A stretch of 64,000 nt of DNA. It comes from Verrucomicrobiota bacterium (GTDB taxonomy: Bacteria; Verrucomicrobiota; Verrucomicrobiia; Opitutales; Coraliomargaritaceae). The stretch's first letter is position 1, and every line of letters begins with the position of its first letter. The notes under the pieces were generated by a model that saw only the letters and a list, made by a program, of their open reading frames with translations, had not been told where the DNA came from and made no database searches. Of the stretch, positions 21,540 through 38,971 are shown in pieces. A program made the translations under genes and the position numbers. The DNA lies in NCBI GenBank assembly GCA_039815375.1, contig JBCBZJ010000002.1:192001-256000 (forward strand), read 5' to 3'.

Positions 21540-22835
21540 ATGGCCGAAAATATTAACTTACAGCTCCAGCAACACCGCGATGCCATCGACTCGATCGATA
21601 ATCAGGTTGTTGATCTCCTGAATCAACGCGTCCAGCAGGATGGCGGCCGCAGCGAGGAAGAGGTTCTCGAGAAAGTTGCCCGGATGAACAATGGGCCACT
21701 TTCTGATGAGAGCCTCCAAGCAATCTATACCTCGTTGATGGTTGCAGGTATGGCGTTGACAGCAGAAGCCCGAGACCCGGATGAAGTGGATCAATCAGAT
21801 CTGAAGATTATCAGTTTGCTCAGCCAGCGGGTGAAGGAGGCAGGTGCTATTGGGAAGATTAAACATGCCAACGGTGCAGATTACTACGATCCAACGCGCG
21901 AGGCCATTGTCATGGCTAAGGTCAAGGGGTTGAATACGGGTCCGATCAGCGACGCGACGATCCAGTCCGTTTATCGTGAGGTTATTTCCGGGTCTATTTC
22001 TTTGGAGAAGAAACTTGTAATCGGCTACCTCGGACCCGAAGCGACCTACACACATCAGGCTGCTATCCGAAATTTCGGTGTGAGTCTGGATTATCGTGCA
22101 ATCAAAACGATACCAGATGTTTTTGCTGAGGTTGAGAGTGGTAAAGCGGATTATGGTGTCATTCCGATTGAAAACTCTACAGAAGGAGCCGTTTTCCACT
22201 CTATGGATATGCTGGTCGAGTCCGAGCTGCATATTTGTTCCCAGGTCTATTTGCCGATTGAGCATTGTTTGATTTCGCATTCGCCACTCGATGCAATCAA
22301 GGAGGTCTGCTCCAAGGATCAGGCGATCGGTCAATGCCGCGATTGGCTGCATGCAAATCTTTCAGATGTCGCCAGCAGGGACGTGGTCAGCACTGCCGAA
22401 GCCGTTCGATTGGCGAGCAAAGATCCCTCGCTCGCGGCGATCGCTAGTTCACTTTCCGCGCAGTATTATGGCGTGCCTATCGTTGAACGGGGGATTCAGG
22501 ATCGAAATGACAACGTCACGCGCTTTCTTGTGATTGGCAAAACGCGGGCGAAACCCCTTTGTCAGGGGCTTGATAAAACGAGCTTGGTAATCTCTCTTAA
22601 GGACCAACCAGGTGCGCTGGAGAAAACGCTCCGTCCATTCGCTTCTCGCAGTCTAAACCTAAGTAAAATCGAGTCACGGCCGAGCCGGAAGAAGGCCTGG
22701 GACTATCTCTTTTTCATCGATTTTATCGGGCACTATGAAGACGCTGTGGTGCAGGATGCGTTGAAGGAGCTCCGTGAGCACTGCGAGTTCGTCAAATGGC
22801 TGGGTAGCTATCCGAATTTGCCGCGCGGCGACTAG
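21540..22835 (+). CDS. pheA: Chorismate mutase/prephenate dehydratase (P-protein) with a duplicated AroQ domain
   Basis: YLGPEATYT, PIENSTEG, NVTRFLVIG and ACT-domain LSKIESRPS; two AroQ-like repeats in aa 1-158. Confidence 0.93.
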   Translation: MAENINLQLQQHRDAIDSIDNQVVDLLNQRVQQDGGRSEEEVLEKVARMNNGPLSDESLQAIYTSLMVAGMALTAEARDPDEVDQSDLKIISLLSQRVKEAGAIGKIKHANGADYYDPTREAIVMAKVKGLNTGPISDATIQSVYREVISGSISLEKKLVIGYLGPEATYTHQAAIRNFGVSLDYRAIKTIPDVFAEVESGKADYGVIPIENSTEGAVFHSMDMLVESELHICSQVYLPIEHCLISHSPLDAIKEVCSKDQAIGQCRDWLHANLSDVASRDVVSTAEAVRLASKDPSLAAIASSLSAQYYGVPIVERGIQDRNDNVTRFLVIGKTRAKPLCQGLDKTSLVISLKDQPGALEKTLRPFASRSLNLSKIESRPSRKKAWDYLFFIDFIGHYEDAVVQDALKELREHCEFVKWLGSYPNLPRGD

Positions 22836-22876: not shown

Positions 22877-23947
22877 CTAAGCGGCTGGGGTGGGGGCTCT
22901 TGAATCCTGACGATCCAGCTCCCTGTTCATCAGTTGGTGGAATCCCTTAGGATAAAAAGCAAGCAGACTGAGCAGAGGGTAACCGAGCGGCAGACGGTAG
23001 CTATCCCGATGTGAACGTAGATAGATATATTCATTGCCTGCATTCAAATGGTGGTCTGCATGGCGCTGCACCATAAAGGTTTGGTAGTTGGAAAAACGGT
23101 GGTAGGAGTCCCACGAGTGATGCGCGGCGACTTTCTCGCTTTCTTCCCGCTTGAGCCCATAATGTTCAAGGTAGAAGGCCGCCTCACTAAAAAGAACCGA
23201 GAAAAGCGCTATCGCGGTATAAAGTAGAAGGCCGGGGATCCCTCCGAGAGAGAATGCGATGCCAAGCATAAGCACTGGGATGCCGAAGTAACTCAGATAA
23301 GGATTCTTCAAGCTGAACCGTTGGATTTGATGCTTCCGAATCCGTTCGTCGACAATGCGGCAGCTTTCCGCATATGACTTAGGATACGACTCGACGAGAT
23401 ATTTCCAGTAAGACGCATCGCGTGACGGAGCGTGGTTGTCCTTTTCGGTTGCGACGTGGGCATGATGGTTGCGGATATGAGCAATTGGGAAGTGCCAATA
23501 GCCGAAGGCATTAAAAGCAAATTGCCCGAAGGCGACTTTGGTTTTCTGTTTGCGATGAATGAGCTCATGGCCAGCAGCAGCAAGGACGCCGCCAGCACAG
23601 GCAAAGGATACAATCGCAACTGTAGTCTCCCACCAGTTCAAAGTGTCAAGAACTGCGATCAGCCACAGCAGGCAGACGAAGAAGAAAACTACATAGGTTA
23701 GGGTGGAGTAGGATAGAACTTCCTGAAGCTTGGGATGAACCTTCTCCTGCTTGATCGTCAGCATATGTTCCCCGACGAAATGATCGAGCGCTGGAACAAC
23801 AATGAACATCATCAGAGTCGGTAGGAGCATCCAGTAGGATCCGCCGATCAGCCCCAGGGCCGCGAGAGCTAGAATGAATTGCGGGAAGAGTCCCCGGATA
23901 AGGGCTTCGCGGTTCTGTAGATCGAATAACTTGATGGTTTCAGGCAT
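22877..23947 (-). CDS. AlkB-like membrane diiron monooxygenase / fatty acid desaturase family protein
   Basis: His boxes HELIH, HIRNHH, FYLEHYG and QRHADHH, plus HSWDS and LPLGYP; multiple TM helices. Confidence 0.85.
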   Translation of the reverse strand: MPETIKLFDLQNREALIRGLFPQFILALAALGLIGGSYWMLLPTLMMFIVVPALDHFVGEHMLTIKQEKVHPKLQEVLSYSTLTYVVFFFVCLLWLIAVLDTLNWWETTVAIVSFACAGGVLAAAGHELIHRKQKTKVAFGQFAFNAFGYWHFPIAHIRNHHAHVATEKDNHAPSRDASYWKYLVESYPKSYAESCRIVDERIRKHQIQRFSLKNPYLSYFGIPVLMLGIAFSLGGIPGLLLYTAIALFSVLFSEAAFYLEHYGLKREESEKVAAHHSWDSYHRFSNYQTFMVQRHADHHLNAGNEYIYLRSHRDSYRLPLGYPLLSLLAFYPKGFHQLMNRELDRQDSRAPTPAA

Positions 23948-23957
23948 TTTCCGTTCG

Positions 23958-25145
23958 CTAGAAACGATATCCTAAAGAGAGCGAAAAGGCGGTGCTATCA
24001 AGGTCGTAGTCTCCGTTTACGGTAGGAAAGTTATTGCCTGATACACGACGGGGGTCAGCAACGGCTTGCTGGAAAGTCAACATCCAGAAAAAATGTTCCA
24101 GGTCCTGTCCCACGCCTATCGAAAAAAAGTGGCGATCTTCGTCTGGGACAATCGGTAGGAAGTCGTCATCAGGAATCGCGTTTTCGACGAAGGTGTAACC
24201 TGCGCTTAGATGCCAACCATTCTCGAAGAAGCGGGTGGCGCCGAACTCCCAAATGTATGCAGAGATCCAATTCAATTGATAAGAGGCAGCGGGCACGCCA
24301 TCAATCGTCAGCTCATTGACCCGGTCCCAGTTGGTCCAGTCCAGGTTGAATTCGAAGTTCCACTTCTCGTTTGGCTTATAGGCGTATCCGGCAACAATTG
24401 ATTCTGGAAAAATAAGATCGACTTGTGCATCCACTGGGAAGCCCATTGTGAGCAAGCCCTGCGCAGTGCCTTCATATGTAAGTTCCGTTTTGGCCTGATA
24501 GTTGAGACCAAAGCTATGCTGTTCGCTTGGCCTCCAAAGGACAGAAACCGTGTAGCCGAAAGTCTGGTCGTCGCCTTCATACTCCAGTGCGTTGGTAAGA
24601 AGCTCGACATCGCTGTCGTCGAAACTGACGCCAATACCGACTGAAAGCGAGTTATTGATCTGCCAGGAAAGGGTGGGCTGGTATTTGACGTAGGCCAGTT
24701 GTCCTTCGTAAGGAACTGCAACCCCCAATAATCCGGATGCAAAAGATGCATCGCTGCCCCAATCCGTGCCAAGTGCGAAGGGAGCATATGCGCCAAAGCC
24801 CACGGCTATCGGCAAATCTTCGAAGTTGTGTGCAATGTAAAGGCTCGGGATGGGTTGAAACGCATCGTCTATGTCGTCGCTTGCGCCGAAGTCTCCTTCA
24901 TATTCAAACGTCGCTGAGATAGCGAGTAAGTTAGCACGAAATTCCGTGCCTTCAATCTGGATGAGACCGGCGGCGTTGTAGAAAATCGCTGATGCGTTGT
25001 CAGCCGTGGCGGTAAATGCGTTCCCGCGTGCAGTAGCGAACGCGTCGAGATAGGCAAAGCGAGTGGCGGCCGCTTGTAACCCGTAAGGAGGGATCGTGAC
25101 GAAAAGAAGGCTTAGGGCTATGAGGCTTGTACGTAGTGAAATCAT
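23958..25145 (-). CDS. FadL/OmpP1 family outer-membrane hydrophobic-compound channel
   Basis: Signal peptide, ARGNAFTATADNASAIFYNAAGL (NPA-like hatch motif), APFALGTDW, terminal YRF. Start placed at ATG 25145, an ATGA overlap with the upstream stop. Confidence 0.88.
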   Translation of the reverse strand: MISLRTSLIALSLLFVTIPPYGLQAAATRFAYLDAFATARGNAFTATADNASAIFYNAAGLIQIEGTEFRANLLAISATFEYEGDFGASDDIDDAFQPIPSLYIAHNFEDLPIAVGFGAYAPFALGTDWGSDASFASGLLGVAVPYEGQLAYVKYQPTLSWQINNSLSVGIGVSFDDSDVELLTNALEYEGDDQTFGYTVSVLWRPSEQHSFGLNYQAKTELTYEGTAQGLLTMGFPVDAQVDLIFPESIVAGYAYKPNEKWNFEFNLDWTNWDRVNELTIDGVPAASYQLNWISAYIWEFGATRFFENGWHLSAGYTFVENAIPDDDFLPIVPDEDRHFFSIGVGQDLEHFFWMLTFQQAVADPRRVSGNNFPTVNGDYDLDSTAFSLSLGYRF

Positions 25146-27172
25146 CTGGTCGAAGGAATCAAAAGTGAAGGGAGTTCGATTTCGACATCCCATTCGTGTT
25201 TATCGTCTCTCGGATAGAGCCGAAGGTAACCTCCATGCTCGGATACGATCTTATTTGCAACGGAAAGGCCCAGCCCTACGCCAGTATAGCGTGTTGTGAA
25301 GAATGGCTCGGCGGCTTGTTCGATTACTGTAGAGCTAAGACCCGAACCGCCGTCTCGTAGTTTAATACGTAGAATACCTTCCTCATCTTCTGTGAGAACA
25401 ACCTTGATCTCCTGCTTGTCGGGTGCGGCTTGCATTGAGTTGATAAACAGCTCTTCGATGGCGTAAGTCAGTGCCTCACTATTACCCTTTAGCTGCGAGC
25501 TTCTCGACTGATTGTCGAAAGTGAGCTGCGCACTGGAATTGCCAAGTTGACTACGAGCCCGGTCAAATGCGTCTTCTACAAGTTGCGCAAGCGCAAGTTC
25601 ATTACTTCCGGCCAGCGAGGACTGAGCCATGTAGAGCATCTGCTCGCTGAAACGTTTGATGCGGGCAGTCTCCTTGATGATAGAGTTTTTAAGAGAGGCC
25701 TGGAAGTTTGGTTGATCGATTTTTTTGTCGATTAACTGAGCATGGGTTGAGAGCGGGACCAACGAGTTGCGAATCTCGTGGGCAAAGCGTTCCGCGATTA
25801 AGCTGATAAGTTTTTCCTTTGTGCTATCGACTGCGCTTTGCTTGTTGGCCTCGATCTTTGTGAAATCCTCGACGATGACCATCGTCGGTCGCGGAAGGAG
25901 GACGAGCTCGCCCTTCTGGGTGAAAGGGAATATTGAAACACGGAAGATACCGTCACCTTCCGGACCATCTATTTCGAAGGGCTCGGGCAGTTCACCTTTC
26001 TCCACTGCGCGGTGTATCGGACTGGCAAGCTTATGTGGGAGTTCGGCAAAGTCGACCTGTCTCTTAGTATCCGAATTTTCGATACGCAAGAAACGTCGAG
26101 CGGCATCGTTGGTATAGAGGATCTGAAGGTCTTCACCGCAGACAAGCGCCCCACTTGACATAGAGTGCAGGACATTTTCGATTAGTTGACCATGCTGTGC
26201 GAGCTCGCTGTGCAGACGGCTGTTACGAATCGCGAGTCCAAGTTCTTCCATTAGAACGTAAAGTAGCTCAAGCTCGTCATCAATGAAGCTTCGCCCCGTC
26301 ACCGGTCCGTTGAGGACTGCGATTCCAATCGAGCCTTCACGATCGCTGATCGGAATAGCGATATCACAGCCTAGAATTGCAAATTCCTTCTCGGTATTTC
26401 CGGCTGACACGCTGAACGGCGGTGCAGTTTGCCTCTGTCTATGAAGAATACGCGGCCGTTCGCTGAGCTCTTTGCCAATTCCCACATCTCGGCTCAGTTG
26501 AAAACAATCAATCAAATCTGTGGGCAGTCCGAGTGAGGCAATGCATTCGAGATGATTCGTTGTGCTTTTCCGGACGACACTTTGCTTAGCTGAGCTTTCG
26601 AGAAAGATACCGATTCGACTGAAGCTGATGTGATCTCGAAGCTTGAGAATGAAGTGTTGAGTGAATGCTTTGTAGTCCAGGCTGAAGCTAAGGATGTGCG
26701 ACAGATCCCGAAGGGTTCGGAGTGTTGAGGCAGTATCGGCTGTAGTCTTGACTATTGGATATTTTGAACCTTCCGGTGGTTTGGATAGATGGCTCTCCTC
26801 GGCGACCGGGTCTTTTTGTAGAAGGCGTTTCAAGGTCCGAACCGGCACAGGCTCGGCGAAGTAAAGATCGGCACCTTCATCAAAGGCGGTGGTTTCACTG
26901 GCAAGGCTGTATTCCGGCACGAGAACAATGGTAAAAACATCTTCCCGTGTTTCGCGAATATCGCGAAGATGGCGCTGCATGATTTTCTCACCGCTTTCGG
27001 CGTAGATGATTATCATGTCAAAGGCACCTCGCTTGATTGCAGATTGCGCTTCATTCGGGGAGCGGCGGATTACGATTCTTTGCTCCGGAGCCGAAAAGGC
27101 TTCCCGCAGATTCAGCGGGATAGAGGCTTCGTTTCTAATGAATAGAAAATGACTCACGTGATCTTTTAACAA
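25142..27172 (-). CDS. Cytoplasmic histidine kinase: degenerate REC - GAF - PAS - HisKA - HATPase
   Basis: H box FAHEIRNSL, DGGSG, PFFTTR, GVGLGL; GAF (IAIPI..IGIAVLN..DELELL); PAS (ILYTNDAA). The N-terminal REC-like fold lacks the phosphoacceptor Asp. Start (TTG) uncertain. Confidence 0.85.
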   Translation of the reverse strand: MLKDHVSHFLFIRNEASIPLNLREAFSAPEQRIVIRRSPNEAQSAIKRGAFDMIIIYAESGEKIMQRHLRDIRETREDVFTIVLVPEYSLASETTAFDEGADLYFAEPVPVRTLKRLLQKDPVAEESHLSKPPEGSKYPIVKTTADTASTLRTLRDLSHILSFSLDYKAFTQHFILKLRDHISFSRIGIFLESSAKQSVVRKSTTNHLECIASLGLPTDLIDCFQLSRDVGIGKELSERPRILHRQRQTAPPFSVSAGNTEKEFAILGCDIAIPISDREGSIGIAVLNGPVTGRSFIDDELELLYVLMEELGLAIRNSRLHSELAQHGQLIENVLHSMSSGALVCGEDLQILYTNDAARRFLRIENSDTKRQVDFAELPHKLASPIHRAVEKGELPEPFEIDGPEGDGIFRVSIFPFTQKGELVLLPRPTMVIVEDFTKIEANKQSAVDSTKEKLISLIAERFAHEIRNSLVPLSTHAQLIDKKIDQPNFQASLKNSIIKETARIKRFSEQMLYMAQSSLAGSNELALAQLVEDAFDRARSQLGNSSAQLTFDNQSRSSQLKGNSEALTYAIEELFINSMQAAPDKQEIKVVLTEDEEGILRIKLRDGGSGLSSTVIEQAAEPFFTTRYTGVGLGLSVANKIVSEHGGYLRLYPRDDKHEWDVEIELPSLLIPSTR

Positions 27173-27226
27173 TATGTTCAGCTTTTTTTTAGGATTGCAA
27201 AGCTGTTTTTCTCGAAGGTTCCCTGT

Positions 27227-29002
27227 ATGCGACGGACAATGGGTTTAATGGGGATTTATGCGACGATTTATGGCCTGAGAGCTTCACCAATAATAAACGT
27301 TGCCAGCCTGATCCGATTCCAACAAAAAAAATCGGCATTGGATAAACTTAAGGCATCTTCCACACCAGATGTGACCAGTCAACGCGTTACCTTTGAGGGT
27401 CCACACGGCATGCAGATCGTCGCCTACATTGACGAAGGGCCTAAGGAAGATTGGAACGGTAAGTTCATTCTACTGGCCCCTCGCTATGGTGAGTCGAAGA
27501 AGAACAACCTCCAATTGAGCTACGTTCTTGCTTCGAATCACTTCAAAGTGATGCGCTTTGACCATACCAATCACATAGGTGAAAGCGACGGCACGATGGA
27601 GTGGTTTACCATTCATGGTGCTGCCGAGGATATCATTGCCTGTGCCAATCATCTTGACATGTACTATGAGCCTAAGGAGATCGCTTTAGTCTCGTTGAGT
27701 CTGTCGTGCCGGAGTGGTTTGAGGGCCTGTGCGCGCGGTTGCCCAATTTCCCGTTTTGTCAGTGTGGTGGGGATGGTCGATTTGGGAAAGACCCTGAACG
27801 CAATCTATGACCGCGACATGTTGAAGGCCTACTCGGAAGAGAAATGGGAGAGAGTTGATATTCTGGGATTTGATATCAATGGCGCAAATTTCTACGACAG
27901 TCTATTCCGGGAGAATTTGCAGGATCTTTCCGGAGCAATTGAAGATGCCAAAAAGACGAGTGTGCCACTGCTTCACCTTCACGCAGAGAATGATAAATGG
28001 GTGGATAGCAATGACGTCGAGGAGCTGATATCTCATTGTCCAAAGGGCCAACTCGAATTTGTTTCCGGTGTAGCACATGAGATAAACGAGAATCGTGATG
28101 CGTTTGCCAATGTCATTGCGCGGATCATTGCCTTTTGTGCTGGAGTTGAGAGTGGGCCGGTTCGCCAACCTGAAAAGCGGTGTCTGATGAAGCAGAACAA
28201 GGCTGAGCGTGAGGCTCTTCAGAAGATGTTTTCTTTCAATCAATCGGAGGCGGAATTCTGGGGTGATTATCTAAGCAAATTTGGAATTATTGAAGAGGCA
28301 GAATTCTACGTTGAGTATTTTAAGAACATGTCGGAACTGCTTGGCGCGGTAAGGCCGGGAGATACAGTACTGGATGCAGGCTGTGGTAACGGTTTCTTTG
28401 GTCTTAGCCTTTTGCATAGTGCAGCAAATCAAATAGCACCGGGCGGTCCAATTTACTATTGTGCCTTGGATCTTTCTCATGATGGGCTGGCCACGTCCTA
28501 TCGTCGTCATGTTAGCGAATATTCCCGATTGATGCAGATGAGTTTGCGGGCTTCGGGAATCGGAATGACCTATTCAAGGGTTAATCTTGACGGGAGTGAG
28601 CAAGAAGAGGACTACCAGTTGCATTGTCGTGATGGAAGCTTTTCAAAAATCTGCAGCAGTCTGGTCGTTTCCTATCTTAAAGACCCGAGCTGGTTGTTCC
28701 GCGAGATCTTTCGACTGCTTAAACCCGGAGGTGTTGCAATTGTATCCAGTATGAAACCGGGATGCGACATGACAGTTCTTTACCATGAATCGATCACGCA
28801 GAAACACACCTCTAATCGGGAATCGGGAGGACGCGCGCTGCTCAGTGCAGCGGGAAAGATTAAATTGAAGAAGGACTCGGGTATTTATCATTTTTTTAGT
28901 AGAGCTGATCTGCAGAGAGCCGCATTTGATGCGGGATTCACGGATATTTCTGCGCATAGGAGTTTCGGCAATCAAGCGAATGTTGTCCGCCTAGTTAAGT
29001 GA
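27227..29002 (+). CDS. LuxD-like acyl-ACP thioesterase/acyltransferase (alpha/beta hydrolase) fused to a class I SAM-dependent methyltransferase
   Basis: N-terminal half has RFDHTNHIGESDG..FT, SLSLSCR, VGMVDL..TL, TSVPL..AENDKWV and AHEINEN, colinear with LuxD motifs. C-terminal half has VLDAGCGNG and EIFRLLKPGG. True start may lie up to ~150 nt downstream. Confidence 0.8.
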   Translation: MRRTMGLMGIYATIYGLRASPIINVASLIRFQQKKSALDKLKASSTPDVTSQRVTFEGPHGMQIVAYIDEGPKEDWNGKFILLAPRYGESKKNNLQLSYVLASNHFKVMRFDHTNHIGESDGTMEWFTIHGAAEDIIACANHLDMYYEPKEIALVSLSLSCRSGLRACARGCPISRFVSVVGMVDLGKTLNAIYDRDMLKAYSEEKWERVDILGFDINGANFYDSLFRENLQDLSGAIEDAKKTSVPLLHLHAENDKWVDSNDVEELISHCPKGQLEFVSGVAHEINENRDAFANVIARIIAFCAGVESGPVRQPEKRCLMKQNKAEREALQKMFSFNQSEAEFWGDYLSKFGIIEEAEFYVEYFKNMSELLGAVRPGDTVLDAGCGNGFFGLSLLHSAANQIAPGGPIYYCALDLSHDGLATSYRRHVSEYSRLMQMSLRASGIGMTYSRVNLDGSEQEEDYQLHCRDGSFSKICSSLVVSYLKDPSWLFREIFRLLKPGGVAIVSSMKPGCDMTVLYHESITQKHTSNRESGGRALLSAAGKIKLKKDSGIYHFFSRADLQRAAFDAGFTDISAHRSFGNQANVVRLVK

Positions 29003-31125
29003 ATACTTATTTAACTATATCCTCATTAGTTAATACATTTTCAGGGCTACTTTTACTAAGTCTCCTATTTTCTTCGCGTGGAATCGACCGAGTAAAGTCG
29101 CGTTTCATACTGCTCACAATCAGTGTAATCGGCTGGTCTTTTTCTTATTTCCTCTGGCGTATTTCGGACTCCGCCACACTTGCGCTTTTATATTGTCAAT
29201 TTCTCACAGTCTTCTCGATCTTTTCGCCGATTACCTTCCTTGATTTTTGCTTGGAGCTCGTCGGCTTGCGTCGGCGGATGCCAGTCTTTCTTGGATATCT
29301 GCTTTGCCTGGTGGTCGCTCTTATGGTCGCAGCCGGATATGTCGTTGAAGGTGTCGAATCTAAATACGGACATGTATTTTGGCCTGTGGCCGGTGAACTG
29401 TTTTACGTCTACATCATCTGCTTTGTACTTACGGTCGCTTTAAGTTGCGCCGTTTTGTTTTACGGCACGAAAAAGCACATTGGGCGACGTGCTTCAGACT
29501 GCACTTTTGTATTCTGCACCGGGTTGATTGGTTTTCTTGGAGCAGCGACCAATTTTCCACTTTGGGTCGATATCCCAATGCAGCCCTTCGGTAATATCCT
29601 CGTTGCTGTCTATCTCGTGACGATCGGACACGGATTATACAGTCAGCGGATTTCCGGTATCAGCACCGATGTGTATAAAGCCTTCGTTGGTATTTTTTTG
29701 AACGCTTCAGCGACCTTGTTCTATCTGATCCTGGTGGCGCTCTACCGCACCTTGATTGAAGAACCGATGGCAAGTGACGAATTTTGGTTCCATGGGGTCT
29801 TTGCGTTTTCTGCCAGTGCCTTAGTCTTTTGGGGTGTCCCGAAATTGAAAGTTCTAAGCGAGCATATTGTGGAAGGGGTGTTTCGTCGGGAGATCAATAC
29901 TGCCCTTGCAGAGCTGCAGGCCCTCCCAACCGAGCTTTCGGAGCTTGGCGAGATTGATGCAATTGCTCAGGTCACCGCCGACACAATAAAGTCTTCACTC
30001 GGTGTCTCCGGTGTAGCCGTGTATCATAATGACGAATTTTCCAGCGAGTTTCGCTGTATCTATTCGAGTGGATCCTTCTCCAGAGATGTAAATGGCTACA
30101 AGATTTTAACCACGAATCCAGTTGTCGAGAGATTGAGTCTAAGGCCGGAGTGCCTTGTTCTGAATCACGTCGCTGATGACTATCGAGAAGCTTTTTATAA
30201 GGCACTCGTTTTGCTAAAGAACGACCTTGGGCTGACAGTTGTGGTGCCTATTTTCGCGAGCCATCAAATTTATGGCCTCATCTTTTTGGGTGGGACAGAT
30301 CAGCCACGCCCATGGTCGGAGGAGGAAATTGCTACGCTTTTTAACATTGCCGCACAGATAGGATTAAACATGCGAGCTCGTGACTTTGAGCGACGTTCCA
30401 GTGAGATTGATAAGCTGGTCGCTCTGGGCACGATGGCTGCAGGACTCTCTCATGAGATTCGTAATCCATTGGTATCGATACAGACCTTTGCATCTCTGCT
30501 CAAGAAAGGGAAAAGTGTTGAAAAGCTTCCGGACGATTTTCGCGAAGTCTTGGTGCGTGATGTGAAGCGAATCGAGAGTATCGTTGATGGCGTAGCCTCA
30601 TACTCCAAAAACCAAAAAGGGCGAAAAGCACCGATTGATATACGCGAAGTAGTCGAATCCAGTTTAAGGATTTACGAACAAGCTGCTGATGCTCAAGGGA
30701 TTGAATGGAAGCTGACGTTACCCCGAGAGGGTGAGGCCATCGTTATGGCGAATTTTGATCAGATGGTGCAGGTGTTCAATAATCTGATTGAAAATGCGAT
30801 TCAGGCGCTCGCTGTTCGCGCAAAAGGTGAAATTGAGATTGATTTAGGGTTACGAAATCTCAGTAAACAGGGCTCTCGACGATGGGTTGAAATTTCTATC
30901 GCGGACAATGGTGACGGGGTTCCTGATTCGATTATCGACCGCATTTTTGATCCCTTCATGACGTCGAAGGATACGGGTAGCCGTGACGAAAAGCAGGGCA
31001 TGGGTCTTGGGTTGGCCATTTCGAAACGGATTATCGAGAACCATGATGGGGCAATCTCCGTATCAAATTTTCCTGGTGGCGGTGCAAAATTTGTTGTCTC
31101 GCTGAGGCTTTTTGATTCGAAGTAG
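28999..31125 (+). CDS. Multi-TM sensor histidine kinase (7TM-type N-terminal domain - GAF - HisKA - HATPase)
   Basis: About 9 hydrophobic helices, GAF (VVVPIF..IYGLIFLG..WSEEEI), LSHEIRNPL, NLIENA, DNGDG, FDPFMTSK, GMGLGL; GTGA overlap with the upstream gene. Confidence 0.92.
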   Translation: MNTYLTISSLVNTFSGLLLLSLLFSSRGIDRVKSRFILLTISVIGWSFSYFLWRISDSATLALLYCQFLTVFSIFSPITFLDFCLELVGLRRRMPVFLGYLLCLVVALMVAAGYVVEGVESKYGHVFWPVAGELFYVYIICFVLTVALSCAVLFYGTKKHIGRRASDCTFVFCTGLIGFLGAATNFPLWVDIPMQPFGNILVAVYLVTIGHGLYSQRISGISTDVYKAFVGIFLNASATLFYLILVALYRTLIEEPMASDEFWFHGVFAFSASALVFWGVPKLKVLSEHIVEGVFRREINTALAELQALPTELSELGEIDAIAQVTADTIKSSLGVSGVAVYHNDEFSSEFRCIYSSGSFSRDVNGYKILTTNPVVERLSLRPECLVLNHVADDYREAFYKALVLLKNDLGLTVVVPIFASHQIYGLIFLGGTDQPRPWSEEEIATLFNIAAQIGLNMRARDFERRSSEIDKLVALGTMAAGLSHEIRNPLVSIQTFASLLKKGKSVEKLPDDFREVLVRDVKRIESIVDGVASYSKNQKGRKAPIDIREVVESSLRIYEQAADAQGIEWKLTLPREGEAIVMANFDQMVQVFNNLIENAIQALAVRAKGEIEIDLGLRNLSKQGSRRWVEISIADNGDGVPDSIIDRIFDPFMTSKDTGSRDEKQGMGLGLAISKRIIENHDGAISVSNFPGGGAKFVVSLRLFDSK

Positions 31126-31130
31126 GTCTG

Positions 31131-32564
31131 ATGTCGGAATTGCCTGAAATCGGAACGGACAATCAGAGTGTAGAACCTGCAGCATTGGCGGGTCATTATC
31201 TGAGGGTTTTTGCGAGTGCAGTTGCTTCGATGTCAGATTTTGAAGGATTTATCGATGCATTGAATGGTCTGGTTCGGGACGATACTTTCTTTCTCGGCAC
31301 TGCGGAACTCTCGAATGCCTTCGCTGATGGTGACGAAAAGTTTCCAGACTTTGAGACTCTGGACAGTTCTGAGACAGTTGTCGCGGTTGCAGGTGATGCG
31401 GGAAATTTGGGATACCTTAAATATTCCGGTCGACAGGACAAACAACCCTTTGGAGCAGAAGATATGCACCTCATGGGTTCGATTGCCGGTTTTATCTCAG
31501 CTCTTATTTCACAAGCGCATGAATTCAGGCAAAAGAGTAAAGCTGACAGGGTACTTCAATTTCTGATCAACCAGTTGCCGTTAGGAGTGATTTGCTTTGA
31601 TTCTAAGGGAGATGTTTTAGTCCAGAGTAATTCTGCAGCGAATCTCGTAGGTGATGCGGGAGCTGCGATTCTTGCGGAGTTGATCAGTTCGGAAAAGACT
31701 TTCGTCAAGGATCGTGCGAGACTCCACTTTGAGGCCGGAGGAAAATTGGTTTATGCAGAGGGTCGTCGATTGCAGGTCGAAGAGGGCCTGAAGGTCGTTG
31801 CCTTTTTGCTCTATGATATGTCGGCTTCGCGCGAGAAGTTGTTAGTTGATCTAGAACGTGAAGCTTACCGAAGCGAGGCTCGCGGCACGTTTCTCACGCT
31901 CGCTCTCCTTGAGATGGACGACGAAGCAGGCAAGGTGTATCGCACACTCCGCTCTGCCGCCAAAAGCCTTCAGATTGATGTGAGCAAAATACAACCGGTA
32001 GATGCCTACAGTTGTGCTTGTGTATTTGCCGGTAAAAGGATGCGTGCAGTCCGTTTCCTTCTCAGGGCTTTACTGAACAAGGCGGCGACTCCCGTTAAAG
32101 TGTCAATTGTTCAACACGAAGGCGCCACTTCCGAGGACAATCCGGCAGATATGATGCTTGAAGTAGCGAAAGAATCTCTTGCGGTAGCAGAGGTTGCATT
32201 GTTACCGAAGCTTCTGGTGCTGGACCCTTATCCGGCAATCTTCGATGCGCTTACTGTTATTACAAATGAAGTTTGCCAGTTAGACGCGGCACAGTCGGTT
32301 GAGTCAGCTTCTACATTGCTGGCGACAGGTCGCTACGATGGAATTTTTGTCGATTTGGATAGCTATCATTTAGATGAGATTGCAGTGCTTCGTGAAGCGG
32401 CAGTTTTAGCCTGCGATGGTTTCAAGTTTTTGTATTGCAGCCACAAGCAACCCGGTATGGCCCGTCATAGCAATGCATTGAGACCTGAGGAGATTGTTCT
32501 CCAAAAACCATTTCATGCTGATAAGATCGTGGAAATCCTCTCGCTTCAGTTTGATTTAGCTTGA
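31131..32564 (+). CDS. Signalling protein: GAF-like - PAS-like - degenerate GGDEF - C-terminal receiver
   Basis: FGAEDMHL (GAF end), LPLGVICFD (PAS), LEREAYRSEARGTFLTLALLEMD (GGDEF N-terminal helix, but no GGDEF motif), REC with YDGIFVD and LQKPF. Confidence 0.65.
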   Translation: MSELPEIGTDNQSVEPAALAGHYLRVFASAVASMSDFEGFIDALNGLVRDDTFFLGTAELSNAFADGDEKFPDFETLDSSETVVAVAGDAGNLGYLKYSGRQDKQPFGAEDMHLMGSIAGFISALISQAHEFRQKSKADRVLQFLINQLPLGVICFDSKGDVLVQSNSAANLVGDAGAAILAELISSEKTFVKDRARLHFEAGGKLVYAEGRRLQVEEGLKVVAFLLYDMSASREKLLVDLEREAYRSEARGTFLTLALLEMDDEAGKVYRTLRSAAKSLQIDVSKIQPVDAYSCACVFAGKRMRAVRFLLRALLNKAATPVKVSIVQHEGATSEDNPADMMLEVAKESLAVAEVALLPKLLVLDPYPAIFDALTVITNEVCQLDAAQSVESASTLLATGRYDGIFVDLDSYHLDEIAVLREAAVLACDGFKFLYCSHKQPGMARHSNALRPEEIVLQKPFHADKIVEILSLQFDLA

Positions 32565-32620
32565 GCAAGATTCTCTATTGGTGAGCATTCCTTATCGTTC
32601 CTATTTCGGATTCCAACAAG

Positions 32621-33748
32621 ATGAATATCGCTAAGACTGACATCATGACCAAACGATTACTCGTCGTGGATGATGAGGACGGACCGCGACAATCGCTAAA
32701 TATGATCTTTAGCGACGATTACGATGTTACGATCGCGACTTCCGGAGAAGAGGCGATTCGGTTTTCATCGGAGAGTCCTTTTCATGTCGTCTTGACCGAT
32801 ATACGTATGCGCGGGCTCAGCGGTATTGATGTTTTAAGGGAGGTTAAAAAACTGGATTCCAATACTGAGGTGATTGTGCTGACGGCATATGAAACACTGG
32901 AGACAGCTCGTCAGGCTATTAGTCTGGGGGCTTCCGAGTATTTGAAGAAGCCTTTTGATATCGAGCATATCCAGAACGTTGTTGATCGCTGCTTTGAGAA
33001 CTACCTTTTCACGACACGGCAAGATGCTGTTATCAGGAAAGACGTTAATGCAGCAAAGACCAACTTCCTCGAAATCGTTAGCCATGAACTGAATACCCCG
33101 ATGAATGGCATCGTAGGTTTCATTGAATTACTACAGGAAACCAAGCTTGATACAGATCAGACCGAATATGTTGAAATGATTCATGACTGCAGCCTGAAGT
33201 ATTTTGAACACGTTCAGGATATTTTGACTTATGCGAAGATATCGATGAGTGACTGCGAGATATCACGGAGCTCATTCAATCCAGCTACGATGTTATTGAA
33301 GCAAATTTTCGAAGCCGTCCCGAGAGAGGGTGTCGAGTTAACGCATGAGATTACTGAGAGCATGCCGGAGTTTGTCATGGGTCCCGAGCAAGAAATTAGA
33401 ATTGTATTAAGAAAGCTGCTCCTTAACGCGCTCAAATTTACCGAATCGGGGACGATCAATGTGTCTCTCGACGCCGTGCCCCTGGGCGGAGGGCATCACA
33501 TTTTTACTTTTACTGTAGCTGACACTGGGCCGGGCATCGAAGAAGGCTTGATCAAGGGTGGAAAAATCTTTGATGCGTTCACACAAGGTGACTCATCGCT
33601 TAAACGAGCCCATGAAGGGCTGGGTCTTGGCCTATCCCTTTGCAAAAGCCTTAGTGATAGACTGAATGGTGAGCTTTCGGTCGAGAGTATAGAGGGGGAG
33701 GGGAGCACTTTTTGCTTCCGTTTCGAACTTTCTGAAGGTAGCTCCTGA
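32621..33748 (+). CDS. Hybrid response regulator-histidine kinase (REC - HisKA - HATPase)
   Basis: [46 protein letters not shown]. Confidence 0.92.
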
Positions 33749-33847: not shown

Positions 33848-34237
33848 ATGCAAGTAACGCTTCTTAAGTCCAAGCTCCTTCGTGCCGAAGTTACCGATCG
33901 TGCCCTTCATTACGAGGGGAGTCTAGCGATTGATGCATCACTAATGGAACAGGTCGGGATGCGGCCGTTTGAGAAGATACTTGTTGCCAATATTGCCAAT
34001 GGGGAGCGCTTTGAGACTTATGCAATCGAGGCGCCTAAAGGTTCGCATACGATTTCGCTGAATGGGGCTGCAGCTCACAAGGGCGAGCTGGGCGACCTCT
34101 TGGTCATCATTTCATTTGCGCTGTTTACTGCCGAAGAAGCTGAAACCTGGAAGCCAAGCGTGATGGTTTTGGCCGATGGCAATCAGCGCGTGGTTCGTGT
34201 TGATAACCCCAAGGTTAAGGAAAACGTTTACGTTTAA
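33848..34237 (+). CDS. panD: Aspartate 1-decarboxylase
   Basis: [13 protein letters not shown] self-cleavage site, [16 protein letters not shown]. Confidence 0.95.
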
Positions 34238-34639: not shown

Positions 34640-37600
34640 GTGAACCTGAAATCTTTATCCGTTTGGCTAATCTATTTCGCTAGCCTTACCATTCTCTCAC
34701 CATCGCTCAGCCACGCTGCGCATCTGGTTGGTTTTGTCTCGGACCGTTCGGCTCCAGAGCTTTTAGGCGGGGCGCACCAGTTCTTGGACAACTATCCAGA
34801 GCACCGCATTACGCTTCGCAGCACCCACCAGTTGGCTGAGTTGACTGATTCTGAACTGAAGCAGTTGTTGGGTGATGCGGATGTTTTCCTCATGGTTGGA
34901 ATTTTTGGCGAAGAGGTCGTTCGCCTTGAGTCTTTTTTGCAGAAGAACGAATTGGGCAAAGCATGTCATGTGATTGCGCTCAATGGCGACCGTCGACTGA
35001 CTCGATTGGCGCGCGTTGAAGGTAAGCGGATTCTTGAAGATCTCAGTGTTGAAGAGCTTCAGGAAATCCATACTAACGCAGACTCAAGCACAGACGCGGC
35101 CACGCTGCTCAAGCAGAAACTCAAGGAGTTTCCGGAACAGGCGCACTGGATCGAGGCGCGCGCCTACTGGCAATCGAAGGGGACGGATAATGTGGCAGAA
35201 ATGTTTGCTTATCTCCTGAAGCACCGGGCCACAGGTTTAACGCCCAAGCCATTAAGACCGCAGGCGGCAATCCGCTATTTTCAAAAAGGAAATGCTATAT
35301 CCGCCGCCGACCTTGACCTGAAAGCGGGCGAATCGGTCATCGCTATTCTCGACCTTAATTCAGGTGACAGTGCGGGTAAACGGGAGACGCTCATCGATAT
35401 CGAGCAGCAGCTTGCGACACATGGAGTCAACTCTTTCAGCGTGCTTGCCCGCTGGGGCAACTCCAGTGTGGAAGCATTAAAGAAATTGGAAGCAACGGCA
35501 GCTCCAGCTCGTATCGCTGGAATCATCGCTTTGCAGGACTTTGTGATCGGCGGTGGGTCAGGACGTGAATCCAGCGTTGAGGCTTTTAAGGCACTCAATG
35601 TTCCGGTCTATAAAGCCATAAGGATGACAGAGACGACGGAAGCGCAATGGCGGCTTTCCGAGGCCGGCCTTCCCTGGGAAACAATCCACTATCGCATTGC
35701 GATGCCTGAGATTCAGGGAATCAGCCAGCCAACAGTGGTGGCGGCGACGTCTAGCCCGAGCATCGACTCGATCACGGGCCTGCGCTTGGTGACGACGCTA
35801 TCGATTGACTCCCAAATCGAATCCCTCGCTGAGCGTGTTCGTAATTGGAATCGGCTGAAGCACAAAGCGAATAAGGATAAGAAGATTGCTTTGATTTATT
35901 ACAACCATCCCCCCGGCCGCCACAACATAGGCGCGGACAATCTCGACGTGCCCGCATCCATCTGGGAGTTACTGCACGACTTAAAGGCCGCTGGCTACGA
36001 GACCGGAGAGCTTCCGGAGTCGCCCGAAGAATTGTTGGATATGCTCCAGGAGAAGGGCGTCAACATGCCGGAAAACTATGAGCAGCTGGCTGCTTATGCG
36101 AAGCGCGTGACTACGGTTCGCGGAGAGCAATATCAGGCATGGTTCTCCGAATTGCCTGAGGTGATTCAACAGGAGATGCAATTCGGCGCTCTCGGCTATT
36201 TAGATGGAGTCATTCGACAGGCAGTAGAATCAAGGGAGATTTCGATCGGACAAAAACATCTGCACGCGGTGATTCACGATCTGGAGCATTTTGTTGAAGT
36301 GGTCGATCATCCGGCACGGGAGCGTGCGCTTGCTCTGATCGAACAGCTCGAGGAGCTCTATCATGAAACGCTGGAAGGAAACCCTCGATGGGATGAAGCT
36401 AAGAAGCACATCAAAGCGTTGGCCGGAATTGGTATCGAAGGCTTGCGCGGATGGGGCGAGGCACCGGGTAAGGTAATGGTGTATGACGGGGAGCTCGTTC
36501 TCCCAGGGTTGCGCTTTGGCAATATCTTCGTTGGGCCGCAGCCGCCGCGCGGTTGGGAAGTCGACGAGGAGATCCTACATGCCAATATGGCCGTTCCGCC
36601 GCCCCACCAATATCTGGCGCTGTATCTCTGGTTGAAGCGTGAGTTCGAGGCGGATGCACTGGTGCACTTGGGGCGTCACTCGACCTACGAGTTTTTGCCA
36701 CGGCATCGAACTGGCCTTTCCGAGGTGGACTACCCTTCGATCATCGCCGGCAATCTTCCGGGGGTGTATCCTTACATCGTCGATGGTGTGGGAGAGGGGA
36801 TCCAAGCCAAACGGCGTGGACTGGCTGTTATGGTCGATCACTTAACTCCACCGCTTCAGACCACACCACTCTATGACGAGCTGCTGCAACTCAGGCAACT
36901 GGTCGAGAGCTACGAAGCCAATGAGCAGGCCGGTAATGCGCCGACTCAGTTACGCACTGGAAAGGCGATCCGCGAAAAAGTCGAGGTGCTGAACATGCAG
37001 GACGAGCTGATTAACGAGCTTAAGAAAGAACACCATCTTGACGATCTGACCTTTGCGAATGTCGACGATGACTTACTGATCCATGAGATCGGGCACCATT
37101 TGACTGAGATGCAGGAGCGCTTCATGCCGCTAGGCTTGCATATTTTCGGGCGTGATTGGAGTCAGGAGGCTATCGAGACCATGCTCAACTCCATCAATCC
37201 GAAAGGGGTGCCGGAAAGCACTCGCGAGGCTTTGACGGTATCGCCATCCCACGAAAAACGCGCCTTCCTAAATGCTTTGGATGCGGGCTACGTCCTTCCA
37301 GGTAAGGGCAACGACCCGGTTCGCACGCCTGAGGCGATGCCAACAGGCCGGAACTTCCATGCACTGGACAGCGGGTTGCTTCCCACGAAGATAGCCTGGG
37401 ATATTGCAGTTCAATTGAACGAGCAGGAGAAGGCAAAAGGTAATGATCCCAACGAAAGTGCTGCGATTGTGCTCTGGGCATCGGATGTCGTGCGCGACGA
37501 AGGCGTGATGATTGCCTTGGGCATGGAGATGTTGGGCATTCAACCACAGTGGAATAGCCGCGGCATAGTTAAGGGTCTCGAGCGCCTTCCGCTGGACCCG

Positions 37601-38971
37601 GACTCTCGACCTTACCGGCTCGATACGGTCTTCACAATTTCCGGTCTGTTTCGCGATCTTTACGGGCAACAAGTTGTCTGGCTCGACACCGCGGTTCTGA
37701 TGGCATTGGACGGCTCTAGTAAGACGATCGCTGAAAAACACCCCGGCTTGAAAGCGGCACTGGAGGCAGCGCTTGAGCCGCTCGGCGAGGCCCGAGAGCC
37801 CGGCAGCGAATCGCTGGAGCACAACATTGTCGCGGCGCACTGGGCTCAATCCACGCTTGAACAGATTGAAGGTGACACCCCTCCAGGTATGGCTGGAACT
37901 CAAGCGATCCTCCGTTTGTTTGGTGCCCCTCCCGGTGGTTACGGCGCAGGCGTCAATCGTATTGTCGAGCGCTCGGGAGCGTGGGAAACACGTGCTGAAG
38001 TTGCGGAGGTGTATTTGCGCGGAATGGGGCACACTTATGGTATCGAAAAAGAAGGTGCGCCTGCCCACAGCAGCTTTGAGCGACAGTTGGCAAAGGTTGG
38101 TCAGACCTATTTGGGGCGAGCCAGCAACCTCTACGGCCTGATGGATAACAATGATGCATTTGACTACCTCGGTGGCCTGAGCATGGCGATCGAGAGCATT
38201 CAGGGCGAAGCTCCGAACAACAATGTCATTCACCATAACAATGTGAACGATCTGAAGATAGAACCTCTGGAGCGTGCTTTGCTTGGCGAGCTACGTGGCC
38301 GATTCTTGAACCCCGCTTGGCTAAAGCCGCTTATGGCTCACGACTATGCAGGTGCGCGAACCATGGGCAGCGAGTTTTTAGAATACCTTTGGGGCTGGCA
38401 GGTGACGAATCCTGAGATCGTGAAAACCTGGGTTTGGGACGAGGTGCATGACGTTTACTTCAAAGATCGTCATGGTCTCGGACTCGATGAATTTCTTGAA
38501 GAGGGTAATAATGTGCACGTTAAGATCAACATGCAGGCGATTCTTCTGGTGGCTGCAGATAAAGCGTTCTGGGAGGCCGATCCTGAAACCCTGCAGCAGT
38601 TGAGTCAGGAGTTCACGGAGCTCGTCATAGAGCACGGCCTGCCTGGGAGTGGTCACACGCGCCCTGATCATCCGATCTTCAAATCAATCATGCCTCGCTT
38701 GAGCGAGGATATGCAGGCAGCACTACAGGCCGTTCTCGATAAGGCGTTGCCTCCGGAAAGCTCTGAAGAAGAGGCAGAAGTTCCGTCTACCTTGGCGGAA
38801 ATTGATACGGTCGATGCTCCTACCCGAACAGAGGCCGCTCAGCCGCAGGAACAGACGACTGAGGCGTCGATCGATCAGATGACAATTCGGGTTGCGATCG
38901 GAGTTCTTGTTGCGCTGTTCTTGTTTGGTGCTCTTCGTGGAAGGTTCCTATCTGGAATTAAGGGAAAATGA
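34640..38971 (+). CDS. CobN/magnesium-chelatase H family protein (BtuS/HmuS-like) with signal peptide and C-terminal TM anchor
   Basis: [65 protein letters not shown] and LWGWQVT motifs. Confidence 0.9.

Follow-up and report, generated by a model that had tools for sequence, protein, structure and literature searches.

A thioesterase/methyltransferase fusion and an adjacent seven-helix histidine kinase form a candidate lipid-signal synthase and receptor pair in Verrucomicrobiota

We find that a seven-gene locus of a Verrucomicrobiota bacterium of the family Coraliomargaritaceae, at positions 22877..33748 of a 64,000-nucleotide stretch (GenBank assembly GCA_039815375.1, contig JBCBZJ010000002.1, positions 192,001 to 256,000; hereafter the window), probably carries the genes for a lipid-signal synthase and for the receptor that reads its product, a new acyl-signal family that would work like the Phc system of Ralstonia. 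The putative synthase is a LuxD-like thioesterase fused to an S-adenosylmethionine (SAM)-dependent methyltransferase, and the putative receptor is the membrane histidine kinase encoded directly behind it, which senses through a seven-transmembrane (7TM) domain of the HisKA_7TM family. A preliminary description of this DNA had proposed a quorum-sensing-like circuit in which an acyl chain is released from acyl carrier protein (ACP), methylated, moved across the outer membrane, oxidised and sensed. Linkage to kinases and FadL, together with the acyl-ACP and polyketide synthase (PKS) genes that accompany the enzyme elsewhere, agrees with that proposal, while its AlkB-like oxidase does not stand as a fixed part; the joint swapping of enzyme and sensor described below adds support that could not be seen then. 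The present analysis adds the co-occurrence across the family, the swapping of types and its breakpoints, the fold of the sensor, which resembles G-protein-coupled receptors (GPCRs), the PKS contexts and a variable oxidase slot.

Results

The enzyme is followed by a 7TM sensor across phyla

Family counts refer to the 101 genomes of the host genome's own family, which are mostly metagenome-assembled genomes and, being kin, are not independent. The enzyme occurs in 24 of them and a 7TM domain of this kind in 25, with neither in 76; the sensor starts directly behind the enzyme in all 24 enzyme-bearing genomes, and the one genome with a sensor and no enzyme is 82% complete. As far as contigs reach, the recurring order is fadL, the soluble kinase and, divergently, the enzyme, the sensor, a protein with GAF and receiver (REC) domains (GAF/REC protein) and a REC-kinase. 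Four loci of a second family (f23) retain this cassette, with the REC-kinase relocated behind fadL in every case, and across the phylum the enzyme is present in 15 of 401 sampled genomes.

We refer to the best 80 of 143 relatives from a GTDB scan seeded with distant homologues as the distant loci; the majority belong to Nitrospirota and the others to Omnitrophota, Planctomycetota, Binatia, Desulfobacterota, Nitrospinota and Elusimicrobiota. Contig ends cut ten of these within 700 bases of the gene, and among the 70 evaluable loci the sensor follows the enzyme in 65 and is missing from five. The gene pair is adjacent in 61 of the 65 (median gap 11 bp), separated by one intervening gene in three and joined by a frameshift in one. 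Linkage of the fusion to the membrane kinase, a neighbourhood check proposed in the preliminary description, therefore holds in several phyla. Behind the 7TM domain of the distant loci lies mostly a kinase and once a GGDEF domain, which replaces the kinase at the end of the sensor (L057:11676-14264), and the regulators encoded downstream differ as well (sigma-54 activators, REC-HD-GYP proteins, single receivers). Because sensor output and downstream regulators both vary, the constant partner of the enzyme is the 7TM input domain.

Two divergent types are exchanged as a block

The enzyme and sensor trees both split into type A, found in 16 family genomes including this one, and type B, found in eight. 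Identity between the types is 37% in the thioesterase, 40% in the methyltransferase and 28% in the 7TM domain, about as low as to the second family; no such split by type is seen in FadL, the soluble kinase, the REC-kinase or panD. Pairwise identities of the enzyme domains and the 7TM domain give rank correlations of 0.86-0.88, and those of the enzyme with FadL or the soluble kinase give 0.06-0.28.

Both types are present within each of the genera g1, g7 and g19. The soluble-kinase tree, from which rows shorter than 300 residues were omitted, places A and B genomes as sisters three times and requires six changes, and a clade of the seven type B rows is rejected in it by the approximately unbiased test (p-AU 3e-86). 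Breakpoints can be located in closely related strains. From the soluble kinase across the intergenic region to the first codons of the enzyme, a stretch of 2159 bp, G242 (type B) and G459 (type A) are 95.8% identical; past this point they share only short patches of 66-74% identity, and similarity resumes behind the GAF-encoding part of the GAF/REC gene. For G242 and G457, the GAF/REC protein is 18-55% identical in residues 1-160 and 82-98% identical beyond. In genus g19 the N-terminal GAF of this protein goes with the swapped block. The soluble kinase lies outside the block, and in none of the 24 genomes do the breakpoints part enzyme and sensor.

Types A and B have thus been exchanged in place within three genera in the manner of quorum-sensing specificity groups, and would represent two signal dialects. 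The pattern is like that of agr, where a variable synthase-sensor segment within a conserved locus sets the specificity groups (PMC13610699), and it recalls the balancing selection on phcB and phcS outlined for Ralstonia (PMC6580516).

The fusion enzyme combines a LuxD-like hydrolase with an intact methyltransferase

The thioesterase part spans approximately residues 10-290 of 554, with a class I SAM methyltransferase behind it. Vibrio harveyi LuxD (PDB 1THT) aligns at E 4e-19 with its S114/D211/H241 in register with the Ser/Asp/His of the enzyme, and across 99 homologues this triad is well kept (S121 in 89/99, D219 in 96/98, H247 in 95/98), as is the SAM motif DxGCG, intact in 97/97. An AlphaFold2 model of the enzyme (predicted local distance difference test, 91; predicted template-modelling score, 0.91) has the two domains packed together and finds 1tht as its best fold match (Z 30.2, root-mean-square deviation (rmsd) 2.7, 274 aligned); general esterases also match the hydrolase fold at Z 27-28, and hydrolase matches fill the whole-model searches. 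The enzyme thus shares with LuxD its fold, its Ser-Asp-His triad and an atypical nucleophile elbow, but at approximately 21% identity and with an NCBIfam LuxD score of 83 against a cut-off of 420 bits; unlike LuxD, it is fused to a methyltransferase, and its locus is devoid of lux genes (luxC/luxE/luxAB). Among named proteins, its closest homologues belong to Coraliomargarita, Lentimonas and Opitutaceae.

Of 64 loci whose triad is intact, 63 retain the sensor, versus two of six with a broken triad, a small and related sample. A scan of 40 longer distant homologues finds PilZ domains in most of them and REC and PAS domains in many, in each case before the same two-domain core, and a START/polyketide-cyclase domain N-terminal to that core in three; distant forms of the enzyme may therefore be controlled by their fused REC, PAS and PilZ domains. 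Modelling the enzyme in complex with residues 296-708 of the kinase gives a score of 0.00, which counts neither way.

Two further observations concern the enzyme gene and its surroundings. Directly behind it in several Nitrospirota loci lies a gene for a PilZ-heme-oxygenase-like diiron fusion (L058:12969-14249, L068, L073, L089 and L098, with a match in L035), and in three loci with this gene the catalytic Ser is replaced by Asn, in which case the thioesterase may be a carrier or pseudo-enzyme. A single open reading frame (ORF) joining synthase and kinase (L075, protein P0282) was rejected as a true fusion, as its junction is the normal C-terminus of the enzyme in a shifted frame, indicative of a frameshift or assembly error.

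The sensor is predicted to have a GPCR-like input domain

In the predicted model, the sensor consists of HisKA_7TM (residues 1-218), two more long helices, GAF, HisKA (H485) and HATPase. PF16927 is detected ahead of HisKA/HATPase at 30 bits, above the cut-off of 28.6, and homologues score higher; the top Atlas matches are HisKA_7TM (0.95), and this is the sole HisKA_7TM protein of the genome. Residues 1-218 of the model match GPCR folds, namely ADGRL3 (Z 18.8, rmsd 3.7, 206 aligned), CD97 (Z 17.1), the vasopressin V2 receptor (16.1) and the prostaglandin EP1 receptor (15.3), a modelled resemblance that says nothing on the ligand. The 7TM profile finds no match among PDB sequences, and NCBIfam gives only the LIC10906 family, in 25 of 53 rows. 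GPCR-like 7TM histidine kinases have been noted among AlphaFold models (PMC13581589), and two reviews include HisKA_7TM without a ligand. Pfam and Atlas place the present sensor in the same family as these PF16927 proteins, for which the portions of the accounts consulted name neither a ligand nor a synthase partner.

Genus g19 also carries 7TM-kinase-REC hybrids that lie by gatB with no synthase (L129:7920-10823, L130:6875-9760 and L131:7735-10622, the last split into two ORFs); these are possible eavesdropping receptors.

Some distant loci lie among lipid-synthesis genes

Fatty-acid or PKS genes are found within 10 kb of the enzyme in nine of 11 Omnitrophota/Planctomycetota loci. Five of these have an active ketosynthase (KS) with a catalytically dead partner, and other neighbours include FabG, ACP, FabZ, a B12 radical SAM protein, a thioester reductase, a START-fused reductase or the fab operon itself; in L035 the enzyme-sensor pair is inserted within the housekeeping fab operon. 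Five distant loci have an AMP-binding (acyl-CoA) ligase nearby. Given these fatty-acid synthase and PKS neighbours and the kinship with LuxD, we infer that the substrate is an acyl-ACP.

The KS-pair clusters enclose the enzyme-sensor pair (L041:14245-21677, L042, L046:4468-10020, L054:14222-17765 and L076:5332-9940) and, besides the active KS and its dead partner, which is like a chain-length factor, contain ACP, FabG, FabZ, thioester reductase, nitroreductase and flavin oxidoreductase genes, with B12 radical SAM genes nearby; their make-up is reminiscent of ladderane-type or highly reducing type II PKS clusters. The fusion of START/polyketide-cyclase and Rossmann-type reductase domains lies just upstream of the enzyme (L036:2654-4249, L041:8398-9984, L047:123-1652 and L054:8403-9974), and is presumably a relative of acyl-ACP reductase.

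FadL is stable in the host family and the oxidase slot is variable

In 20 of the 24 enzyme-bearing family genomes the cassette has a fadL gene next to it on its contig, contig ends interrupting the other four, and the copy here is the only FadL of the genome. Among the distant loci, FadL is divergent and upstream of the enzyme in eight of 80, these being from Binatia and deltaproteobacterial groups. Import of long-chain N-acyl homoserine lactones by FadL has been described (PMC9938287).

The AlkB-like protein retains the membrane diiron His boxes and the HYG motif at no more than 30% identity to named AlkBs. The preliminary description made it a component of the circuit; its gene is found in one of 101 family genomes, this one, and in none of the 80 distant loci, which leaves it at best as one of several optional oxidases. 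The slot behind fadL is visible in 21 family genomes, where it holds a lipid-type oxidase in six (AlkB once, cytochrome P450 three times, a delta-9-like desaturase twice) and none in 15. The P450 genes stand tail to tail with fadL and are therefore possibly unrelated to the cassette; the two desaturases are on the same strand as fadL, are 58% identical to each other and have no similarity to AlkB. A slot oxidase is thus a plausible but optional tailoring or turnover step. The two closest relatives of the AlkB-like protein are 64% and 62% identical to it. Among metagenomic relatives, none of ten loci is near a cassette. A P450 elsewhere in this genome was considered as a cassette partner and rejected, its neighbourhood being unrelated. 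By eye, a region at G000:C11:236400-245400 holds a P450 related to those of the slot, two flavin monooxygenase-like genes and a ketosynthase-III-like gene.

The putative relay kinases keep phosphorylation motifs

The soluble kinase has a receiver-like N-terminus that, by eye, is without the usual Asp, followed by GAF, PAS, HisKA (H465) and HATPase; it has no hydrophobic segments, conserves the motif FAHEIRNS and the N and G boxes, and is present in every family locus that contigs cover. The REC-kinase is 60-73% identical across family loci with conserved D60/H155 motifs. No Pfam match is obtained for the GAF/REC protein in the window copy, and its homologue in L028 shows GAF, PAS and REC domains; its middle part is GGDEF-like by an Atlas lead below 0.9, with no conserved GGDEF motif, and it is likely an output or adaptor protein.

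Discussion

A model for the enzyme-sensor pair

In the mechanism that we propose, the LuxD-like serine thioesterase would take an acyl chain off acyl carrier protein and the methyltransferase would cap it using SAM. The neutral product would partition into membranes and cross the outer membrane, helped where present by FadL as an exporter or an importer, and would bind the 7TM bundle to shift phosphoryl flow. Phosphoryl groups would then pass from the sensor to the soluble kinase and the REC-kinase hybrid, and from these to the GAF/REC protein and regulators encoded elsewhere. In these kinases the His, N and G boxes are conserved, as is the Asp of the receiver. The optional oxidase, AlkB here, could tailor or destroy the molecule. 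That the membrane-crossing product is a fatty acid methyl ester or the like is the weakest step, a guess that we put forward as possible and slightly doubtful.

Several results weigh against this model. The methyltransferase domain profile yields nothing specific, its best PDB match (E 1e-11) being an unassigned methyltransferase; BioC matches 58 of 58 aligned methyltransferase domains, the Mtf2 fatty-acid O-methyltransferase model matches 19 of 58, and UbiE and ArsM match also, all far below cut-off, and with no specific relative neither the mode of methylation (O-, C- or N-) nor the acceptor is fixed. The family cassette contains no transcription factor and no conserved promoter motif, which leaves autoinduction without a visible route. 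The expected linkage to FadL stands in the host family and in the Binatia and deltaproteobacterial loci, but 71 of 80 distant loci are without it, and of the 40 family genomes with FadL, 23 have the enzyme. Two broken-triad loci still carry a sensor, one of the four broken-triad loci scored as sensor-less has sequence for just 1.3 kb behind the enzyme, and 7TM kinases also occur as orphans. The swapped block also spans the GAF and kinase core of the sensor, and co-variation may therefore reflect physical linkage or protein-protein fit rather than ligand fit. Any block that moves as one will co-vary, so the feature to be explained is that the breakpoints never fall between enzyme and sensor.

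Two alternatives are less probable than this model. In the first, which we consider unlikely, the enzyme draws on the pool of acyl-ACP or PKS intermediates to report its state, the methylated acyl messenger does not leave the inner membrane of the producing cell, and the relay tunes the synthesis of membrane or specialised lipids; such an internal sensor of lipid status would account for the insertion in the fab operon of L035, for the ladderane-like and type II PKS clusters of Omnitrophota and Planctomycetota and for the lack of FadL in most distant loci, but leaves unexplained both the exchange of two divergent, mutually exclusive types between near-identical strains and the stable outer-membrane channel of the host family. 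The second, to which we give a comparably low probability, holds that the pair is an adaptation system in which the methyltransferase methylates carboxyls of the 7TM kinase or a partner, the hydrolase demethylates or acylates the protein, and the kinase reads an unrelated outside cue. CheR/CheB and LCMT1/PME-1 are analogues of such an arrangement, which would explain the strict adjacency and the joint swapping that includes cytoplasmic parts of the kinase, and would fit the fused REC/PAS/PilZ control domains and the esterase fold matches at Z 27-28. The hydrolase is nonetheless nearest to the myristoyl-ACP thioesterase LuxD in sequence and fold, the FadL, START, KS/ACP/FabG/FabZ, acyl-CoA ligase and lipid-oxidase neighbours indicate a lipid small molecule, and neither the enzyme nor the 58 methyltransferase domains have a CheR or CheB match in Pfam or NCBIfam, a result still compatible with analogous protein methylation. 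Use of outside lipids or alkanes, with FadL importing, AlkB oxidising, the hydrolase cleaving esters and the kinases reporting substrate, is very improbable: FadL beside AlkB is the classic alkane-uptake arrangement and a P450 or desaturase occupies the same slot elsewhere, but 15 of 21 visible slots are without an oxidase, AlkB is confined to a single family genome, the conserved neighbours of the cassette were not seen to include any gene for beta-oxidation, rubredoxin or alcohol dehydrogenase, and the intact methyltransferase has no role in such catabolism.

If the synthase-receptor model is correct, the pair would provide a communication system for marine polysaccharide-degrading Opitutales, Nitrospira-type nitrifiers and Omnitrophota, groups with little known signalling chemistry in the literature found, as well as a candidate ligand, makeable by one enzyme in E. 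coli, for an orphan family of GPCR-like sensors. The two natural types offer a built-in specificity control, the cultured species among the named homologues permit a direct test, and the fusion may turn acyl-ACP into fatty acid methyl esters within a single protein. More tentatively, and at somewhat less than even confidence, we suggest a widespread quorum-sensing class extending over Verrucomicrobiota, Nitrospirota, Omnitrophota, Planctomycetota and Binatia, with methylated acyl or polyketide signals from LuxD-methyltransferases, kinases of GPCR fold that read them, diversification by optional PKS and oxidase genes, dialect cassettes of synthase and receptor, and gating of the synthase by cyclic di-GMP and phosphorylation in nitrifiers. 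In that case a bacterial GPCR-like 7TM sensor of the HisKA_7TM family would have its first ligand.

Comparison with known signalling systems

The literature searched, chiefly open-access papers mostly judged from listings and abstract openings, yielded no description of a LuxD-methyltransferase/HisKA_7TM enzyme-sensor pair. The locus itself is real and conserved, and its synthase and receptor probably represent a new acyl-signal family; Phc is compared here through its architecture and description. In Ralstonia, a SAM methyltransferase gene likewise heads the operon with the membrane kinase next (PMC6989110), and there are two signal types, the methyl esters of 3-hydroxymyristic and 3-hydroxypalmitic acid (3-OH MAME / 3-OH PAME; PMC7912708). 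By architecture, and with a differing order, both operons also combine a membrane kinase, a REC-kinase hybrid (here with the domain order of PhcR) and a receiver protein that lacks a DNA-binding domain. They differ in that a LuxD-like thioesterase is fused here, whereas PhcB is described, in the portion consulted, only as a SAM methyltransferase; in the HisKA_7TM-GAF sensor, the extra soluble kinase and FadL, and the occurrence in other phyla; and in the lack of a PhcA-like gene within the cassette, a statement that covers the locus and not a genome-wide PhcA search.

The diffusible signal factor (DSF) system (rpfB-rpfF-rpfC-rpfG) is similar in that a thioesterase activity frees the acyl chain from ACP, and in having a membrane kinase, a regulator of the REC-HD-GYP type and an acyl-CoA ligase (PMC7912708); REC-HD-GYP proteins lie downstream of the pair in Nitrospirota and some Omnitrophota loci (e.g., L035, L048, L050). 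RpfF is, however, of the enoyl-CoA hydratase type, while the enzyme here is an alpha/beta-hydrolase (PF02273) with a methyltransferase; no enoyl-CoA hydratase-type family match is found in any of the seven proteins, which excludes the locus from the DSF family, and the sensor is without a REC-histidine phosphotransfer tail and the window cassette without an HD-GYP protein. Vibrio CqsA/CqsS shares the adjacency of synthase and membrane kinase and an acyl-derived signal read in a membrane domain (PMC13729885). CqsS has six helices, as opposed to the seven here. The synthase chemistry of CqsA or agr involves a pyridoxal-phosphate enzyme or a peptide, respectively, and is unrelated to that of the present enzyme.

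Locus layout and flanking genes

All seven ORFs are confirmed as two divergent close-packed runs flanked by pheA (21540-22835) and panD (33848-34237) (Table 1), the arrangement given in the preliminary description, whose domain calls were likewise borne out by Pfam, NCBIfam and PDB searches, that of 31131-32564 via L028 only. The grouping of six cassette genes in family loci is far above chance; the exception is the AlkB-like gene, which is particular to this genome. The four right-hand genes have a G+C content of 46-48%, versus 50-57% for their neighbours.

Table 1 Features of the cassette in the window
Feature	Position	Strand	Evidence and remarks
AlkB-like membrane diiron oxygenase, optional	22877..23947	-	FA_desaturase; PDB AlkB E 3e-34; 10 bases behind fadL
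FadL-family outer-membrane channel	23958..25193	-	PF03349 (FadL/Toluene_X) 1e-41
Soluble GAF-PAS-HisKA-HATPase histidine kinase	25142..27157	-	Pfam; longest ORF from 27172
Divergent intergenic region, ~180 bases	27158..27337	.	Presumed promoters of both operons
LuxD-like thioesterase/SAM-methyltransferase fusion, 554 aa	27338..29002	+	PF02273 7e-24, PF13489 1e-12; longest ORF from 27227
HisKA_7TM-GAF-HisKA-HATPase membrane sensor kinase	28999..31125	+	PF16927 6e-7, with GAF, HisKA, HATPase; 4-base overlap with enzyme stop
GAF-PAS-REC protein, 477 aa, no DNA-binding domain	31131..32564	+	Domains via homologue L028
REC-HisKA-HATPase hybrid	32621..33748	+	Pfam; D60, H155

The fusion enzyme probably starts at TTG 27338, consistent with a database protein (P0001) of 554 aa and homologues of about 560-570 aa, and the soluble kinase probably at GTG 27157, as judged from homologue alignments that begin at residue 6. 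Alignment of the divergent intergenic region from 20 family members reveals no conserved motif, and a promoter scan of this region gives one sigma-70-like site, with total sites below the chance count. A plasmid search returns a single weak acyl transferase match. Contigs of four DNA sequencing runs give only near-identical pieces, and among the joints listed none falls inside the cassette.

Genes split into two ORFs each occur at L121:208-2372, L126:2289-4434, L074:1620-4555, L108:9920-12503 and L032:316-1889; they include the soluble kinase, the sensor kinase, the enzyme and pgi, and may reflect a frameshift or an assembly error. In pheA (+ strand), the chorismate mutase region is duplicated, with three Pfam stretches before the dehydratase, and relatives share its length. 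At window positions 34640-38971 (+) there is a 1443-aa ORF that, read by eye, has the look of the CobN/magnesium chelatase family with a C-terminal membrane segment; in its place, several relatives have a TonB-dependent receptor and a Fur-like gene after panD.

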